From assembly GCA_002068915.1 (NCBI GenBank), contig MWBE01000017.1, positions 3,818-67,817 on the forward strand: DNA of 64,000 bases, given 5' to 3'. Both the position numbers and the translations under genes were made by a program. Positions 13,222-53,491 of this stretch are shown one piece after another. Position 1 is the stretch's first letter, and the number at the start of each line of letters is the position of its first letter. This DNA is from Parcubacteria group bacterium ADurb.Bin326 (GTDB lineage: Bacteria > Patescibacteriota > Patescibacteriia > 2-01-FULL-39-33). The notes below the pieces were generated by a model that worked only from the letters and a program-made list of their open reading frames with translations, made no database searches and was not told the origin of the DNA.

Positions 13222-13749
13222 TTAAATTTTTCGGCTGTCGTAAGCCCAATGCAGTAATGCTTGGCGCTGTTTGCGCGAGCAGGATAAGTCCTTGGGCGCA
13301 CAGCGGTGTTTGAGTTGCGCAATATGCCGCTTCATCATCTTCCAGCGCTTGATTTGTCGCCCGTCTTCTTCCGGCATCCGCCTACCCAGATAATACCGGC
13401 AATACCACTGAAACCAGCCGCGCGGATCTTCTGGTTTAATCCAACCATTTTTACGCCACACCGCTAATGACTGGCTAGCATCAACACCGAAATAGTTTAA
13501 TTTGGGACTATGGCCCGGGGTTTTCAAGGGGTGTAATTTTGCTTTTTTAAACCAAGCAACGGGAAACTCCTTACGACAATCGCGCAAATACCTGCCGCCA
13601 AATACCCCCAATTCCAACATCTCTTGAGGGGTTAGTTTCGGCTTGAATTCCGGATCAAAATCCTTACCCGTTGGCTCACTCAAATAATAACGATAACCGC
13701 GCTGCATTTTATCGTTAACAACTATCAGTTTTTTCTTTGCTAATGGCAT
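13222..13749 (-). CDS. hypothetical protein with a conserved-looking W/Y/R-rich motif (GWFQWYCRYYLGRR)
   Basis: 175-aa ORF. Composition is somewhat GC-shifted relative to its neighbours. No family confidently recognised. Confidence 0.45.
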   Translation of the reverse strand: MPLAKKKLIVVNDKMQRGYRYYLSEPTGKDFDPEFKPKLTPQEMLELGVFGGRYLRDCRKEFPVAWFKKAKLHPLKTPGHSPKLNYFGVDASQSLAVWRKNGWIKPEDPRGWFQWYCRYYLGRRMPEEDGRQIKRWKMMKRHIAQLKHRCAPKDLSCSRKQRQALLHWAYDSRKI

Positions 13750-13803
13750 ATGTTTATAGAATAATTATAACAAAAAACAATTAAATCTTAAATAAATTAA
13801 GCG

Positions 13804-13832
13804 TTGACAATTTATCAAATTTATACTAATCT
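13804..13832 (+). promoter_or_regulatory. candidate promoter (TTGACA ... TATACT/TAATCT, suboptimal spacing) for the GC-rich zinc-ribbon gene, followed by a strong SD AAGGAGG
   Basis: TTGACA at 13804-13809. Possible -10 hexamers at 13823-13828 or 13827-13832. AAGGAGG lies 8 nt before the ATG at 13887. Confidence 0.35.
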
Positions 13833-13886
13833 ATTTTAGATAGTCAGTTGTCCTTTCCATAAACATCAACTAAGGAGGATTGTGTC

Positions 13887-14366
13887 ATGAGAGCGACTCG
13901 AAACAACTCGGGTGAAGCCAAGGAAGTAAAAGAGGCCAGAAAGCGTCTACACCAGATGCGCGGTACTGGCTTTGTTCTGACCCCAGACGCCGCCAAGCTG
14001 ATTATGACGGCCGGAGGCCCGACCTTTAGAACAGTTAGTGGCGGCTATCGTTGCAACCAGACCGGAGAGAAGGTGGGGCGAGGCAGCACCGAGAACTACC
14101 GCCAACGAGTGTACGGACTGGCGGCTCCGCCCAAGCCGGTCGTAGTCCAAACGAACGCTTCGGCCAGCTCTTCTAGGAGAACGGTCCAATCGCACATTCC
14201 GGAAATTGACATCACCAGCCCTGACGTCTTTATACGTTGTCCAAACCCGCTCTGTGAAGTTGGGATCGGCTATGCCAATCTCATGCTCGAAGGTATCGGG
14301 GTCTGTCCGAGGTGCAACAAGCAGTTTCGAAAAATCCGACACCCGCAATCAGTGAAAAGGACGTAA
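13887..14366 (+). CDS. hypothetical GC-rich protein with a C-terminal Cys4 zinc ribbon (CPNPLC...CPRC)
   Basis: 159-aa ORF with SD AAGGAGG. Visibly higher GC than flanking genes. The in-frame sequence after the TAA stop (14367-14492) encodes a second CPHC...CQFC zinc ribbon. Confidence 0.55.
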   Translation: MRATRNNSGEAKEVKEARKRLHQMRGTGFVLTPDAAKLIMTAGGPTFRTVSGGYRCNQTGEKVGRGSTENYRQRVYGLAAPPKPVVVQTNASASSSRRTVQSHIPEIDITSPDVFIRCPNPLCEVGIGYANLMLEGIGVCPRCNKQFRKIRHPQSVKRT

Positions 14367-14520
14367 CCCAGTCCAACCGGAAACATCAACTGCCCGCACT
14401 GCTATGAACGAATCGCCCACATTGTTAATTTTTCTGATTTTTACTCGACGATTGAGTGTCAATTCTGCCACCGCAAGCTGATCGTCGAGTAGGATACACC
14501 CTGTCCTCCCGACTACACAT

Positions 14521-14562
14521 CCGCCGGCGCGCCACCTAGGCTCGCCGGCTTCTTTTTTTTAT
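14521..14562 (+). terminator. intrinsic terminator (GCCGGCG ... CGCCGGC + T9) ending the GC-rich cassette
   Basis: GC-rich inverted repeat followed by ttcttttttttt. Confidence 0.6.
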
Positions 14563-14582
14563 TAGATTCTTTAACATAAAAA

Positions 14583-14612
14583 CAAAAGAGCGATTACTAA
14601 TCGCTCTTTTGT
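14583..14612 (-). terminator. intrinsic terminator downstream of the tRNA-Asn 3-prime exon (minus strand)
   Basis: AGAGCGATTA-g-TAATCGCTCT hairpin followed by a U-run on the minus strand. Confidence 0.55.
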
Positions 14613-14670
14613 TAATTAAAAAATCACCAAAGCTCCGCGAACTGGATTCGAACCAGTAACCTACCGGTTA

Positions 14671-15218
14671 CACTTATCTCTGACTTTCATCAAAGGGTGG
14701 ACTATATCATTACCTTTTCCAGTCTATTGGATTAAGGTATCAGGCGCTTCGGCCCGCCTTTAACGGCGGAACTACTCCCCAAAGGGATAGTCTCTGAACC
14801 TTCCCCTGAAAGGGGCTTGGCTGCGGATTACCATATCCTTGCGGACTTAGGCTTCCCGCAATTCACCTGATTATCATTCCAAAATTTCTTTCGGAAGCTG
14901 CGTGGAGCCGGAATGTAATTCTCTATGACAATTAGCACATACTAACAAGCATTTATTAATCTCTTGAATGACTTTATCCCAAGATCTTGAAATCCTTTTG
15001 AGGAGACGCCAAAATCTTTTTTATTGCCATCCAAATGATGGAATTCTAATGCTTGCACGCATTTACTGTAGCCACAGATTTCACACTTGCCGCCTTTATA
15101 TTCCAAGGCCTTATCCCTTACGGCTTTACGCCTCTTGGACACTGCCTCAATCAAATATTTACGACGGTCGGCATATTTTCTATTATCTTTAGTCATAACT
15201 TTTGATAACAGACGGTTC
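14671..15218 (-). mobile_element. group I self-splicing intron (~548 nt) in the tRNA-Asn anticodon loop, carrying an HNH endonuclease ORF
   Basis: On the minus strand the classic core elements are read directly: P AATTGCGGGAAG (14852-14863), Q AATCCGCAGCC (14819-14829), R GTTCAGAGACTA (14788-14799), S GATATAGTCC (14699-14708). P3 ATCAGG/CCTGAT. Candidate IGS GCAGC pairs with exon GCUGU with a terminal U-G. Omega-G at 14671. Confidence 0.8.
14942..15196 (-). CDS. intron-encoded HNH-family homing endonuclease (CEICGY ... EFHHLDGNKKD)
   Basis: The ORF track shows 14942..15238, but its first 7 codons lie in the tRNA 5-prime exon. The likely start is the internal Met at 15196 (MTKDNRKY...). C-x2-C plus HH..N HNH motif. 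Confidence 0.55.
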   Translation of the reverse strand: MTKDNRKYADRRKYLIEAVSKRRKAVRDKALEYKGGKCEICGYSKCVQALEFHHLDGNKKDFGVSSKGFQDLGIKSFKRLINAC

Positions 15219-15338
15219 ACAGCCGGTTGCTCTACCATTGAGCTATCGCGGAACTCTAGTGATTTTTATGTACTTTAATGACGTTAAATATCTTAACAAA
15301 TTTTTCTGGCTAAGTCAAGCCAAATTTTCTGTGGAAAA

Positions 15339-16652
15339 TTAGTAATCTCTCAATTTCTCGATACCCTTAATCTTCTCAATTTTCTCCAGAGCCTTAGCCT
15401 CAATTTGACGGATGCGCTCGCGAGTGACATCGAATTCTTTGCCCACTTCTTCCAGGGTATGAGCTACGCCATCCTTCAAGCCAAAGCGCATCTCCAAGAC
15501 CTTCTGTTCGCGCGGCGTCAATTCGGAAATGACCTGCTTCACGTAATCTTTTAAAATTTGTAAGGCGGCGACACGATCCGGAGTGACTGTTTTCTGGTCT
15601 TCAATAAAATCCTCTAACACGCTGTCTTCGCTATCATCGCCAACTGGAGTGCCAAGTGAGATAGTCTCTTGAGAAATCTTGATAATATGATTAATTTTAT
15701 CTAACTCTTCTCCCATTTCAGCGGCAATTTCCTCCGGCATTGGTTCGCGTCCCAAATCTTGCACTAGACGACGCTCAACTTGCTGAAAACGATTGATGTT
15801 TTCCACCATGTGCACCGGAATGCGAATGGTACGAGATTGATCGGCAAGCGATCTGGTAATCGCCTGCCTAATCCACCAGGTAGCATAAGTAGAAAACTTA
15901 TACCCCTTATGATAATCAAACTTATCAACGGCGCGGAACAATCCAATATTGCCTTCCTGGATCAAATCAAGTAACGATAAGTTCTTACCAGTAAATCTCT
16001 TAGCAATGGAAACCACTAAACGCAAATTGGCTTTAATTAATTTTTGCTTTGCTTCAACATCTCCACGCTCAATTCTTTTAGCCAAAGAAATTTCTTCATC
16101 AGAATTAAGCAATGGCACCTTGCCAATCTCGCGCAAATACATTTGAATTGAGTCGGCAGAAATATCCCCCAGATCAATGCGGTCGCTTAAGGTAATTTTT
16201 GGGCTTTTTTTGCCAGGCTCTGCCGGCGCTACAGAATTGGAAGAAGCCATAAAATTACCACCCAACAGAGATGGCGGTTCAGCTATCCTGACACTGGCAA
16301 TATCCAGAGAATCCAAAAAATCTTCGTATTTTTCCAGATTTTCCTCAACTTCGGGAAACATCAAAGAAATCTCTTGCTCAGTAACAAAAGACCTGAGCTT
16401 TCCTTTTTTAAGAAGGGATTGGATCTCTTCTTCAGAAGGAATAATTATTTGCCTTGGCTCCGGCTTTTCCTTGTGCGATTTCTTAATAATTGCCTTCTTA
16501 ATCGGCTTAGCAACCCTCTTTACTGCCGGCTTTTTAGTCGCCTTAGGCTTAGGCTTAATTTTCGAGATGATTTTCTTAACTAACTTGGCAGATTTTTTTG
16601 GCGCAGTTTTCTTAGTCGACTTAGCGGCCGGCTTTTTATTATTTTTTTTCAT
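15339..16652 (-). CDS. rpoD: RNA polymerase sigma factor RpoD (sigma-70), Lys-rich N-terminus
   Basis: 437-aa ORF with regions 1.2/2/3/4 ([40 protein letters not shown]-terminal [24 protein letters not shown]). Confidence 0.95.
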
Positions 16653-16710
16653 CGTACCTTTTGAGAATTAAATTACGCCGGCAAGAGGCAGTGCCTTGTC
16701 GCCAGCTGGT

Positions 16711-18654
16711 TTAGAGCTCTGATTTTTGCCTAATCAATTCGCTCAAAGAGATAGAAATTTTTTCTAAGGCGATCTTGTCGCCAATTTTCTCCGCCTGCCT
16801 TAGTTCATTATTCAGACGGGAAATCATCGAGCTTAAATAATTGCTTTTAAGCAATTTAAGTATGGTTTCTATTTCATTTTTGGCTTCTCTGGCGTCTAAG
16901 GAGGCAAAATCCTTTTGTGCCAGAAGATACGACTGCTCCAAAAATTGTTCGGCCCCGTCGGAGACGGCTTGGGTTTTCAGCCAATCTGTAAAGGCTGAAA
17001 AAATATTTGTTTCCTCCCGTCCACGAGCGCCTAAGGCGAACAGTTCGTTATGCGTAGTATAAAATAAAATAAGACTTTTGTAAAGCTTTTGAGCCAACCC
17101 TTCGTTTAAATAGTCTGGCAGCAGTTCCTGACTCAATTTAGACAACAATTCAGGAAAACGCCAAATAATCGCTAAAATAGTTCTAAACTTCAATAAATCC
17201 GGGTCATTTATGGTTTTTTGAGGTTGCGCCGTTACTGCGGCCTCCTGGGGCCTTACAGGGGCCTTAAGACTGCCGACAACCCTTGAAACCAACTCTCGCA
17301 AAGCTTCTTCGCCCACCGCCAAACGATTGGCGATTTCCTTAATCCAGTAATTCTTCTCTATCGGATCATCTAATTGCGCAATCTTCTCACTGAGCAACTT
17401 GGCAACATTCTTTTTTATTTGCGGATCATTTAAATCTTGAGACGCTGAAAACATCCGCCAAAAATATTCCATTATCGGCAAGGCTTCGCTAATGGCCTGA
17501 CGCCAATCATCGGGATTGTTTTTGATGCACTCGTCAGGATCCTTGCCATTAGGAATTGAGATAATTTTCAAATTCAAATTTAAACTCAAGGCCGGATCAA
17601 TGAACTGCGACCGCTTACCATATCGATCCGTCCCCTCCACCAAACGCGAATCATTTTCCACGGATTTAATCAACTCCGAACCGCGCTCAGAAGCTTTTTG
17701 TCCGGCACTATCAGCGTCTAAGGCAAAATAAATATTATTGGTAAATCTTTTAAGTAACTGAATTTGCTCTCGCGTCAAAGCCGTACCGGATGAAGCCACA
17801 GTATTTTTAAATCCAAATTGATGGCAAGTAATAGCATCCATCTGTCCCTCAACCACTACTACGGTATCTAATTTGCGAATCTCGCTTTTAGCCCGGTACA
17901 GCCCAAAAACAATGGCGCTTTTATTATAAATATCCGTTTGCGGCGTGTTCACATATTTGGCCGGCTCTTCAGGATTGAGTGTCCTGCCAGTAAAACCGCA
18001 GGTTCTGCCGTTGTGATCAACTATCGGAAACATAACGCGATTACGGAAGCGGTCATAATAACCGTTGCCCCGATCTTTTTTGACGACAAAACCGGCAGCA
18101 AAGATCTCTTCTGCCTTAAACCCTCGCTTAATCAAAAAATCAAAAAGATTGCTCCAGTCATCAATAGCATAGCCCACATTAAAATCTTCAATCACCTCTT
18201 CACTGACGCCACGTCCAGCCAAATAACTCCTCGCCGACTCCGCTCGTGGCGATTCCAATAAGACCTTATGCCAGTAACGAGCGGTTAACTCGCACAAATC
18301 ATACAAACGATTTTTACGATCGTGAGCTTGCGGATTTTGCCGTGTCAAAATTACGCCGGCACGATCTGCCAGGATTTTCAGAGCTTCGGGAAAAGAAAGA
18401 TTTTCAATCTTCATCAAAAACTCGAAAATATCTCCGCCCGCCCCGCAACCAAAGCAATGCCAAGAACCCCGCTGAGGCGAAACCATCAATGAGGGTGTTT
18501 TTTCATTATGGAACGGACAAGCGGCTTTATAAGTGCCGGTGCCGGCCGGCTGCAACTTCAGGTAATCCCGAAGCAATTCATCCACATTAATCCGCACCTT
18601 GATTTCTTCTACTTCTTGTGAGGAGGACATATTTTTCTGCCAATATCTTAGCAT
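16711..18654 (-). CDS. dnaG: DNA primase
   Basis: 647-aa ORF with a zinc-binding CPFHNEKTPS...CFGCGAGG motif and TOPRIM EGQMD; directly upstream of rpoD. Confidence 0.95.
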   Translation of the reverse strand: MLRYWQKNMSSSQEVEEIKVRINVDELLRDYLKLQPAGTGTYKAACPFHNEKTPSLMVSPQRGSWHCFGCGAGGDIFEFLMKIENLSFPEALKILADRAGVILTRQNPQAHDRKNRLYDLCELTARYWHKVLLESPRAESARSYLAGRGVSEEVIEDFNVGYAIDDWSNLFDFLIKRGFKAEEIFAAGFVVKKDRGNGYYDRFRNRVMFPIVDHNGRTCGFTGRTLNPEEPAKYVNTPQTDIYNKSAIVFGLYRAKSEIRKLDTVVVVEGQMDAITCHQFGFKNTVASSGTALTREQIQLLKRFTNNIYFALDADSAGQKASERGSELIKSVENDSRLVEGTDRYGKRSQFIDPALSLNLNLKIISIPNGKDPDECIKNNPDDWRQAISEALPIMEYFWRMFSASQDLNDPQIKKNVAKLLSEKIAQLDDPIEKNYWIKEIANRLAVGEEALRELVSRVVGSLKAPVRPQEAAVTAQPQKTINDPDLLKFRTILAIIWRFPELLSKLSQELLPDYLNEGLAQKLYKSLILFYTTHNELFALGARGREETNIFSAFTDWLKTQAVSDGAEQFLEQSYLLAQKDFASLDAREAKNEIETILKLLKSNYLSSMISRLNNELRQAEKIGDKIALEKISISLSELIRQKSEL

Positions 18655-51988: not shown

Positions 51989-53491
51989 ATGAAGAAACTT
52001 AGTGTTGTATTGATGATGGTTTTTGTGGTTTTCGGCTGCCTGGTGCTTACCGGCTGTAACAAGCCTGGCGACAACAACGGCGAGAACCCGCCGGCCGTGG
52101 TCAACCCTGAAGGCGAAACGCCCGAGGGCGAAGACGGGCCGACGATCCGCCCGGTTGTGGAAGGTGAACCTGAGACCCCTGCGGTCGAGGGTGAACCGGA
52201 AGTGCCTGCCGAGGGCGAGCCCGAAGTGCCGACGGAACAGTCCGGCAGTATCGTTATCACCGGAGTCCTTTTCAAGGGACTGCCGGCAACCAAGGCGCTG
52301 AGCGCGGACGAGAACGGACTGACAGCTGAAGAGCTGAGTCAGGCGTTCCTCGAAATCGCTGCGGCGACCGATGGACTGGAGTTGGTGCTTGACGGTGACG
52401 GCGAGAATGATTACAAACGCTCCTGCACTGTGCAGAGCGACGGGTCATTCTTCTTGCGCCTGGCAAGTGTTCTGCCCGGCGATTACAAGCTGGAGCTGAA
52501 CACCATGTCCAGCACCACCGGCATCAACGGCTGGGGCAAATCCGAAGTCGATGTGAAAATCGAAGCCGGCAAGGTCACCCAGGTGACCGTCGCCCTCGAG
52601 CGGATGGAAACGTTCGCAATCCTCGGATACTTCAGCGATGAACTCGCGGAAGATGAGGATTGGGGTTCGTTTGAAGCCTTCCTAGTCGACACCGCGGGAA
52701 ACAATTATACCGCGGTCCTCGCCAAAAACGATGCCGACGAATGGGTGATCAACGGGTACAACCTGCCTGTCTCGGCCATCATTGGGGCCTTGAAGATCAC
52801 GGGCGACGACATCGAAACCATGATGTTCGCCGTCGACACGACGAGCACGGCTTTCGAGAACGGCTACTCGTTATTCGACGTGATCGACAACGAAGCCATG
52901 CTCGCCCTCGTATCCGACACTGGAGACCTTGAAGTCACCGTCCCCCCGATTGATCTGGGTGAAGGTGAAGACGAAGAGGGCGAAGTTGAGAGTGAGGACG
53001 AAACCGAAGGCGAAGGCGAAACTGAAGGCGAAGGAGAAGTTGAAGATGATAACTCCCTTCCCCTGGTCGCCGGCAAAGCGACGGTCGGGCTGATCATCGA
53101 AACCGATGGCTCAGTGACGATGCTCGCCGACGCCAACGAGGGCTTCAGCCTGCCCCTGTCCTTCTACGGCCTCCCCGCTTCGATTGCCTCGCTCGGCGTC
53201 GAGGTTTACTACCTGGATGACGCCCACGACCCCGACGGTGCTTGGGAAGATCGCCAAGTCGTGGCTTGCTCCGGACTGCCGTTCGAGGCAACCGTGAACA
53301 TCTTCGATTCCCCGGTCTGGCGTTTCCAAGTGGTTGCCAACTCCGTGGACATGTGGGCCGGAAACTATGCCAACTCCGTGAAGTTCCATGTCGTGGTCAA
53401 GTACCGCGATGCTGAGAATTGGACAACACTGAGTCAGTCCGATGACGGCAGTGGCAACATGGCGTACCAGGTCGATACCCGGACGCTGTAA
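51989..53491 (+). CDS. GC-rich acidic lipoprotein (500 aa; lipobox LVLTGC; Glu/Pro-rich linker repeats; Asp/Glu-rich segments)
   Basis: [19 protein letters not shown]. Signal peptide plus Cys lipobox. Composition strongly GC-rich compared with neighbours. No catalytic motif recognised. Confidence 0.55.
   Translation: MKKLSVVLMMVFVVFGCLVLTGCNKPGDNNGENPPAVVNPEGETPEGEDGPTIRPVVEGEPETPAVEGEPEVPAEGEPEVPTEQSGSIVITGVLFKGLPATKALSADENGLTAEELSQAFLEIAAATDGLELVLDGDGENDYKRSCTVQSDGSFFLRLASVLPGDYKLELNTMSSTTGINGWGKSEVDVKIEAGKVTQVTVALERMETFAILGYFSDELAEDEDWGSFEAFLVDTAGNNYTAVLAKNDADEWVINGYNLPVSAIIGALKITGDDIETMMFAVDTTSTAFENGYSLFDVIDNEAMLALVSDTGDLEVTVPPIDLGEGEDEEGEVESEDETEGEGETEGEGEVEDDNSLPLVAGKATVGLIIETDGSVTMLADANEGFSLPLSFYGLPASIASLGVEVYYLDDAHDPDGAWEDRQVVACSGLPFEATVNIFDSPVWRFQVVANSVDMWAGNYANSVKFHVVVKYRDAENWTTLSQSDDGSGNMAYQVDTRTL

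Follow-up and report, generated by a model that had tools for sequence, protein, structure and literature searches.

In a 64,000-nucleotide (nt) stretch of contig MWBE01000017.1 from Parcubacteria group bacterium ADurb.Bin326 (the window; all positions below are counted from its first base), two halves of a tRNA gene stand 548 nt apart on the minus strand, separated by a sequence that resembles a group I intron and contains an open reading frame (ORF) for an HNH nuclease. This arrangement raises the questions of which tRNA is encoded, whether the interruption can still be spliced out, and whether it can still move. We argue that the locus is very probably a tRNA-Asn(GUU) gene split at anticodon position 35/36 by a 548-nt group I intron of subgroup IA, in a copy that is most likely immobile but still competent for splicing. 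As such it is a correct identification of a published and experimentally validated class, and not a new kind of element; only the distribution of this class across phyla and the free-standing phage relatives of its nuclease lie beyond the literature that could be searched.

The interrupted tRNA-Asn gene and its ribozyme

An earlier note, made from the sequence of the window alone, had placed the tRNA halves at 15252-15219 and 14670-14633, and both are present at these coordinates. The parts of the gene are as follows.

15219-15252, minus strand: 5′ exon of tRNA-Asn (34 nt), comprising the acceptor strand, the D arm, the 5′ strand of the anticodon stem and the loop bases C32, U33, G34 and U35.
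14671-15218, minus strand: group I intron (548 nt) between anticodon positions 35 and 36, with the last base, G14671, as the omega-G.
14633-14670, minus strand: 3′ exon of tRNA-Asn (38 nt), comprising U36, A37 and A38, the 3′ strand of the anticodon stem, a 5-nt variable loop, the T arm, the acceptor strand and G73; CCA is not encoded.

When the exons are joined, ARAGORN reads a 72-nt tRNA-Asn(gtt) with a perfect cloverleaf. Neither ARAGORN in its default mode nor the Rfam tRNA model detected the split gene in the whole 64-kb window, where both reported a tRNA-Lys only and no second tRNA-Asn. With introns allowed, ARAGORN does call a split tRNA with a 548-nt intron, but it names the gene tRNA-Thr(tgt) i(33,548) and not tRNA-Asn. 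This alternative arises because GU stands at both intron borders: moved by two bases, the intron would lie at 33/34 of a tRNA-Thr(UGU).

Comparison with homologous loci distinguishes the two junctions. Relatives were fetched with the HNH protein, repaired as described below, as the query. A scan of one genome per species yielded at least 563 loci with relatives of the nuclease, and the 80 homologous loci referred to here are the best 80 of them; tRNA gene counts out of 81 add the window copy, and counts for the internal guide and P1 rest on 76 loci. In every one of the 80 loci the 5′ exon ends in CUGU and the 3′ exon begins with UAA preceded by G; therefore, the group I rule of U(-1) at the 5′ splice site and an omega-G at the 3′ splice site is satisfied at 35/36 in 80/80 loci, as against 44/80 at 33/34. 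The guide sequence GCAG, in addition, is invariant in 76/76 loci. The preference of the earlier note for the 35/36 junction is thus upheld. The window tRNA also has U1-A72 and G73, and the termini UCC...GGAG are found in 66 of the 81 genes. This combination of U1-A72 and G73 is usual in bacterial tRNA-Asn, while G1-C72 with A or U at position 73 is found in bacterial tRNA-Thr. The interrupted gene encodes tRNA-Asn(GUU), and its intron separates anticodon positions 35 and 36.

The intervening sequence matches the Rfam model Intron_gpI (RF00028) at 14954-14678 on the minus strand, across the full model (1-253), with 101 bits against a gathering score of 50 and an E-value of 5.3e-25. The group I assignment made earlier by eye is therefore matched by a strong covariance-model hit, and the core elements P, Q, R and S, the P3 pairing, the guide GCAGC (14901-14897) and the terminal G (14671) that had been claimed with it were all found. 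The ribozyme is laid out as follows.

14896-14901, minus strand: internal guide GCAGCU, the 3′ strand of P1, pairing with exon GGCUGU; G14901 and U15219 form the wobble pair at the splice site.
14877-14896, minus strand: P2 hairpin, UUCCGAAA-GAAA-UUUUGGAA, with compensatory changes in 6/6 pairs and 92.7% of cells paired.
14679-14870, minus strand: ribozyme core, P3-P9, marked by the Rfam match and by covariation.
14870-14866 and 14744-14740, minus strand: P3, core helix.
14861-14795, minus strand: P4-P6, core helices.
14863-14852, minus strand: core element P, AATTGCGGGAAG.
14829-14819, minus strand: core element Q, AATCCGCAGCC.
14799-14788, minus strand: core element R, GTTCAGAGACTA.
14792-14788 and 14704-14700, minus strand: P7, invariant in the alignment.
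14787-14776, minus strand: P7.1, UCCCUUUGGGGA, an insertion relative to the Rfam model.
14769-14754, minus strand: P7.2, CCGCC...GGCGG, an insertion relative to the Rfam model.
14708-14699, minus strand: core element S, GATATAGTCC.
14694-14679, minus strand: P9, preceded by P8; both are core helices.

Covariation was assessed in an alignment of 41 diverse intron copies with a hand-drawn structure to which P3, P7, P7.1 and P7.2 had been added. In this structure 90.1% of cells are paired, compared with 33-46% in controls that displace the 3′ partners by one to three columns, and bases on both sides have changed in 41 of the 53 consensus pairs; none of 500 shuffles matched the observed values. 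RNAalifold, run on the same 41 sequences, independently recovers P2, P4-P6, P8 and P9 with 27/33 pairs compensated; it also drew an invariant GC/GU pairing between the guide and the 3′ splice region, which is not interpreted here. In the window copy 51 of the 53 consensus pairs are formed, and all of the invariant core bases are kept. A permissive Rfam search of 13700-15400 gave nothing credible besides the intron.

The two hairpins P7.1 and P7.2, which lie between P7 and the 3′ strand of P3 (14754-14787), carry compensatory changes in 9/9 pairs; just 62-72% of their cells are paired because the region is poorly alignable and some relatives do not have it. Judged by these hallmark hairpins, the intron is of subgroup IA. 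Subgroup IC3, a first guess made by analogy with the introns of Azoarcus and Anabaena, was ruled out by the two hairpins between P7 and P3′ and by the IA class given in the literature.

The guide lies about 320 nt 3′ of the 5′ splice site and immediately 5′ of P2. The four P1 pairs CUGU:GCAG are invariant in 76/76 loci, with the splice-site U always opposite the G of the guide, and the fifth and sixth positions are paired in 61/76 and 70/76 loci, respectively. Covariation was sought in P1 as well. Neither the guide nor the exon end varies, and no covariation is seen at the fifth position, which does vary, so that the evidence for P1 is one of conservation.

The gene would be transcribed from its own promoter, downstream of dnaG-rpoD, and the last six exon bases, GGCUGU, would pair with the distant guide GCAGCU to form P1, placing the splice-site U in a U·G wobble. 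An external guanosine would then attack after U35, the terminal G14671 would take the G site in P7, and the exons would be ligated to give the 72-nt tRNA-Asn. Two homologous 35/36 introns of Patescibacteria have been shown to self-splice precisely and guanosine-dependently in vitro, with the junction sequenced and with loss of ligation in an omega-G to C mutant as the control (PMC13011429).

A separate observation concerns the 5′ border, where the exon end ACCGGCUGU (15227-15219, minus strand) recurs 2 nt into the intron as ACCGUCUGU (15216-15208), with 8/9 bases identical. The guide could form its four invariant pairs (CUGU) with this repeat too, which would amount to a cryptic 5′ splice site. 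It is not present in relatives and may be due to chance.

A frameshifted nuclease gene in the P1 loop

The ORF with the motif CEICGY...HHLDGN that the earlier note had described is indeed present. Its start codon lies 22 nt inside the intron, and it therefore fills the P1 loop and does not occupy a 5′ peripheral region as had been proposed; its 3′ end encodes the guide and P2, and it is frameshifted.

14942-15196, minus strand: HNH ORF, part 1 (frame 0), from ATG 15196-15194 through CEICGY...EFHHLDGN...INAC to a premature TAG at 14944-14942.
14990-14993, minus strand: frameshift site, with one base absent in a Tyr codon, GGAT-TTCAAG here against GGATATACNAG in eight relatives (DNA alignment; in a shorter view, GGAT-TTC against GGATATAC).
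14874-14993, minus strand: HNH ORF, part 2 (-1 frame), ISRSWDKVIQEINKCLLVCANCHRELHSGSTQLPKEILE, ending in the stop TGA at 14876-14874.

The part in the -1 frame reads SWDKV...CLLVCANCHRELH and includes the CANCHRELH half of the motif, and the motif CxxC...HH...N...CxxCH, that of a zinc-bound beta-beta-alpha-metal core, is complete in the window solely after repair of the frameshift. With the base restored, the protein has 107 amino acids (aa) and shows no gap in an alignment with 23 homologues that are intact and about 106 aa long. It has 779 homologues, mostly of about 106 aa and 65-75% identical, the best at 75%, and it keeps 30/30 family-invariant residues, including CxxC, HH and CxxCH; across the 24 sequences C38, C41, H53, H54, C87, C90, H91 and H95 are invariant and N89 is nearly so. 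Fourteen of the 24 family members match the Pfam HNH family PF01844 at E-values up to 0.01 (best 2e-5). In a profile search of PDB sequences the nearest entries were the HNH domain of a group II intron maturase and McrA, at marginal E-values of 0.018-0.02, and the AlphaFold model of the protein is of moderate confidence (pLDDT 77.8). We take the family to consist of small HNH nucleases of the zinc-finger kind.

The last ten codons of the ORF (TQLPKEILE and the stop; 14874-14901) are at the same time the guide and P2, and P2 compensates in all six of its pairs while coding. The tail is conserved in intronic copies and is exchanged for unrelated tails in free-standing ones because it encodes the guide and P2. 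Ribosomes that complete the ORF would unfold P1 and P2. Since the end of the ORF overlaps these helices, translation and splicing of one transcript should be mutually exclusive.

In relatives with an intact gene, its product presumably acts as a homing endonuclease: it would cut or nick tRNA-Asn genes that lack the intron, and repair would then copy the intron in. Indirect support for homing comes from the occurrence of the same ORF at the same site in many phyla and of free-standing relatives beside phage tRNA-Asn genes. The ORF is intact in 76 of the 81 genes, and the window is among the five in which it is not; where a mobile intron would have an intact endonuclease that cleaves the intron-less allele at or near the insertion site, the window has a frameshifted gene that, as written, is probably not functional. 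Given this 1-nt deletion, the window intron is most likely an immobile yet splicing-competent copy at a late stage of the homing cycle.

Several points weigh against this reading. We infer from sequence both the splicing of the window copy and the name "homing endonuclease" for the HNH family. The P1 pairs are invariant, so that covariation cannot confirm them, and the fifth pair is mismatched in 15/76 relatives. A search for P10 gave nothing convincing, the window offering just a CCGG/CCGG possibility. The repaired window protein stays below the Pfam gathering thresholds (18.2 against 23 for PF21368 and 12.8 against 21.4 for PF01844), and the ORF as written likewise gives sub-cut-off matches. 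A Foldseek search with the AlphaFold model was non-significant (best E-value 0.45), though its top matches are nearly all HNH nucleases, among them Cap5, McrA, TagI, the Cas9 HNH domain and T4 endonuclease VII. Finally, a sequencing error within a T run could account for the frameshift.

This last point leads to the alternative that survives best, namely that the HNH gene is functional and the intron mobile, either because the gap is a homopolymer error of sequencing or assembly or because of -1 slippage on UCA-AAA-G just upstream. We consider it unlikely, if well short of negligible. The gene shows no damage besides the one missing base, which falls within a short T run 4 nt downstream of an A-AAA-G motif, and it keeps the 30 invariant residues and the 75% identity to its best homologue; yet the window reads as a deletion against all eight aligned relatives, and four of the 80 relatives also lack an intact ORF, so that the gene is known to decay elsewhere. 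Programmed -1 frameshifting at A-AAA-G was demoted to a minor part of this alternative, as no relative has a conserved frameshift at the site.

A far less probable alternative is that the locus is a dead relic, in which the intron no longer splices and the cell uses another tRNA-Asn gene outside the window. The broken nuclease gene does betray some decay, and the view taken here is restricted to 64 kb of the genome. The ribozyme, by contrast, has retained nearly all of its consensus pairs and every invariant core base, and its 101 bits in the Rfam search exceed the 70 and 67 bits of two relatives on viral contigs; the joined exons fold into a cloverleaf with no defect, the gene has promoter-like and terminator-like signals on either side, and genomes seldom hold interrupted and uninterrupted tRNA copies for the same anticodon together (PMC13011429). 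That the gene is instead tRNA-Thr(UGU), with an intron of the same length shifted two bases to 33/34, is scarcely credible despite the ARAGORN call and the U and G (14673) that precede the shifted 5′ and 3′ sites in the window too, for the would-be omega-G is G in just 44/80 loci, U33 stands opposite A in the inferred P1 and forms no U·G wobble, the tRNA body has the U1-A72 and G73 noted above, and the sequenced products of spliced homologues are joined at 35/36, the exact miscall of such tRNA-Asn introns by ARAGORN and tFind being documented (PMC13011429). A tRNA-Asn(GUU) gene carrying an immobile but splicing-competent intron thus remains the best explanation of the locus.

Relatives in genomes and phages, and known systems

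The ORF lies inside a split tRNA gene in all of the best 80 loci, and the ribozyme profile matches downstream of it in 80/80. The window copy is 72% identical to that of the nearest species representative. Besides Patescibacteria, the 80 loci include genomes labelled Nitrospira (8 genomes), Acidobacteriota, among them a closed 5.5-Mb Pyrinomonadaceae chromosome (L080), Elusimicrobia, Omnitrophota, Planctomycetia and Ignavibacteria/Bacteroidota; the loci with labels other than Patescibacteria are L007, L016, L021, L022, L027, L032, L036, L039-L041, L043-L045, L047, L051, L056, L062, L065-L067, L071, L074 and L080. In loci from all of the labelled phyla the ORF, the ribozyme and the insertion site are identical in kind. 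The record labels are partly doubtful, as several "Gammaproteobacteria" bins have Patescibacteria-like tRNA and RpoD. A survey of complete genomes found nuclease-bearing IA introns at 35/36 in Patescibacteria only and predicted that drafts might add more (PMC13011429). In draft genomes the nuclease-bearing 35/36 form is spread over many phyla, beyond Patescibacteria.

Apart from these introns, ARAGORN made further, unverified calls of tRNAs with long introns near the target loci, namely Pro(cgg) i(30,502), Ser(tga) i(36,224), Ile(tat) i(34,512) and Ser(cga) i(34,983), at L044:4394-4982 (-), L095:711-1024 and L154:110-1987. The ribozyme profile gave a weak match at L095 only.

A scan of viral contigs yielded at least 585 relatives of the nuclease at 45-66% identity, and 459 phage records in INPHARED match it. 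The counts that follow refer to the best 80 of these viral relatives, on contigs classed as viral. The ORF is nearly always free-standing within a tRNA gene array. In 45 of the 75 loci that contain any tRNA, the nearest one is tRNA-Asn(GUU), at a median distance of 29 nt; after dereplication it is nearest in 31/50 loci, against 8.3 expected from the tRNA content of each locus (P about 7e-16). In Bacillus phage Bastille (L161, NC_018856 5857-6685) the annotated order is tRNA-Asn, HNH endonuclease, tRNA-Asn; the second annotated tRNA-Asn (68 nt) was not recovered by the Rfam tRNA model. On a contig classed as viral (L102, IMGVR_UViG_3300023184_006895, 574-1149), a free-standing HNH ORF (574-876) abuts the 5′ end of a tRNA-Asn gene (869-1149) with a group I intron of 206 nt at 35/36 (Rfam 67 bits); this intron has no ORF, and its guide GCAGC stands just 7 nt past the 5′ splice site. 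In another such contig (L081), the ORF lies within the intron (Rfam 70 bits). ARAGORN intron calls on viral loci without ribozyme support, such as tRNA-Asn i(35,194) in L095, which had no Rfam hit, were set aside as unverified.

It is possible, if somewhat doubtful, that the HNH family, a large one, is specific for the tRNA-Asn gene and that its members record three stages of intron building. In the first, a free-standing nuclease would adjoin an intact tRNA-Asn gene, as in Bastille; in the second, it would abut a tRNA-Asn gene with an ORF-less 35/36 intron, as in L102; and in the third, it would have been captured in the P1 loop, as in the window and at least 80 species of many phyla. Phages would then serve as the reservoir of free-standing members and as the vehicle that takes the element across phyla. 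By analogy, the series is suggestive of the "collaborative homing" route from a free-standing to an intron-borne nuclease. Our literature search found no paper that ties this nuclease family to tRNA-Asn genes or describes a phage-reservoir route, and a 2014 review stated that all phage introns then known lay in protein-coding genes (PMC3984707). The closest precedents for the phage arrangement are T4 SegB, a free-standing homing endonuclease from a phage cluster of tRNA genes (PMC2330249), and the trans or "collaborative" homing of T4 mobE (PMC2790892; reviewed in PMC3984707), with which the free-standing relatives in phage tRNA arrays may be compared; SegB is a GIY-YIG enzyme, and its likeness to the present family is one of arrangement only.

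Some phage arrays contain two tRNAs with a GUU anticodon (L087, L093, L100, L113, L128 and L161), and in L087, L093, L100 and L161 these flank the HNH ORF. A long variable arm (86-88 nt), not usual in a tRNA-Asn, marks one member of the pair in L093, L100 and L113.

Classical tRNA introns are found in cyanobacterial and plastid tRNA-Leu(UAA) at 34/35, tRNA-fMet at 33/34, Azoarcus tRNA-Ile and alpha-proteobacterial tRNA-Arg at 36/37. Like the window intron, they are group I ribozymes in the anticodon loop of a tRNA and form P1 from the anticodon stem-loop. They differ in being IC3 introns without P7.1 and P7.2, whereas the window intron is IA, lies at 35/36 and carries its ORF in the P1 loop. 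Of all bacterial tRNA introns, 81% are IC (PMC13011429). The tRNA-fMet intron of Synechocystis encodes I-Ssp6803I (Bonocora and Shub 2001, as cited in PMC3984707), a PD-(D/E)XK enzyme (family PF11645 according to PMC13011429) in an IC intron at 33/34; the window nuclease differs as a predicted zinc-finger HNH protein of about 106 aa in an IA intron at 35/36.

The insertion at 35/36 of tRNA-Asn with a nuclease gene had been thought uncommon in the earlier note, a view that does not hold, since the class has been published, including HNH-bearing members and splicing in vitro (PMC13011429; 10.1101/2020.01.27.920355). Williams (2020) raised the number of intron-interrupted tRNA types from 4 to 21 (bioRxiv 10.1101/2020.01.27.920355), and according to Nakagawa et al. 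the list includes the type Asn.4Ug (PMC13011429). Nakagawa et al. (2026, mSystems) described 15 tRNA-Asn(GUU) introns at 35/36 in 95 complete Patescibacteria genomes, four of which carry HNH (PF01844) genes, and classed 25/28 introns at 35/36 as IA (PMC13011429). Compared with their introns in tRNA-Asn(GUU) or in tRNA-Asp(GUC), the window intron shares the host phylum, the tRNA, the site, the IA features, the HNH gene carried by four of the fifteen tRNA-Asn introns and the miscall; nothing essential differs, except that the window nuclease gene is frameshifted.

The locus bears on annotation, as standard tRNA finders miss such a gene or call it tRNA-Thr, and the genome then seems to be without tRNA-Asn and is scored as less complete, a point also made in PMC13011429. 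The split gene may be the sole tRNA-Asn gene of its genome, and it would be a further example of a bacterium with a reduced genome in which a part essential to translation needs an RNA that splices itself, here in a copy whose mobility gene has just decayed. The HNH family, with its ties to phage tRNA-Asn genes, would offer a concrete system for the study of how free-standing homing endonucleases become intron-borne.

Surroundings of the gene in the window

The gene order in the window is dnaG, rpoD and then the intron-bearing tRNA-Asn, the upstream genes lying within 15339-18654. The order rpoD-tRNA-Asn recurs in at least a dozen Patescibacteria loci (L002, L004-L006, L013, L015, L017, L018, L023, L037, L042 and L057), and in several of them, for example L002, L013 and L023, a dnaG relative also stands upstream of rpoD, as in the window. 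At 80% identity, the window RpoD resembles that of a Ca. Buchananbacteria genome, and with the shared gene order this marks the host as a Patescibacteria bacterium. Candidate transcription signals flank the tRNA gene.

15290-15318, minus strand: promoter-like site, TTGACT, 17 nt, TAAGAT with an upstream TG, about 38 nt 5′ of the tRNA; a match from a consensus scan only.
14571-14613, minus strand: intrinsic-terminator-like hairpin (14613-14581) and T run, with 15 pairs, 20 nt past the tRNA 3′ end.

The consensus match suggests that the former may act as the promoter of the gene. Just 3′ of the terminator-like hairpin, the segment 13887-14560 is G+C-rich, with inverted repeats at about 14440-14555; it has no Rfam family at gathering score in the whole-window scan or in the permissive search of 13700-15400, and a 159-aa ORF within it (13887-14366, plus strand) has no Pfam match. 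Far from the tRNA gene, 51989-53491 (plus strand) encodes a 500-aa protein with no Pfam match but with a lipoprotein-type signal (LTGC) and acidic Glu/Gly/Pro repeats, in a 2-kb stretch with 54.5% G+C against a window average of about 41%.

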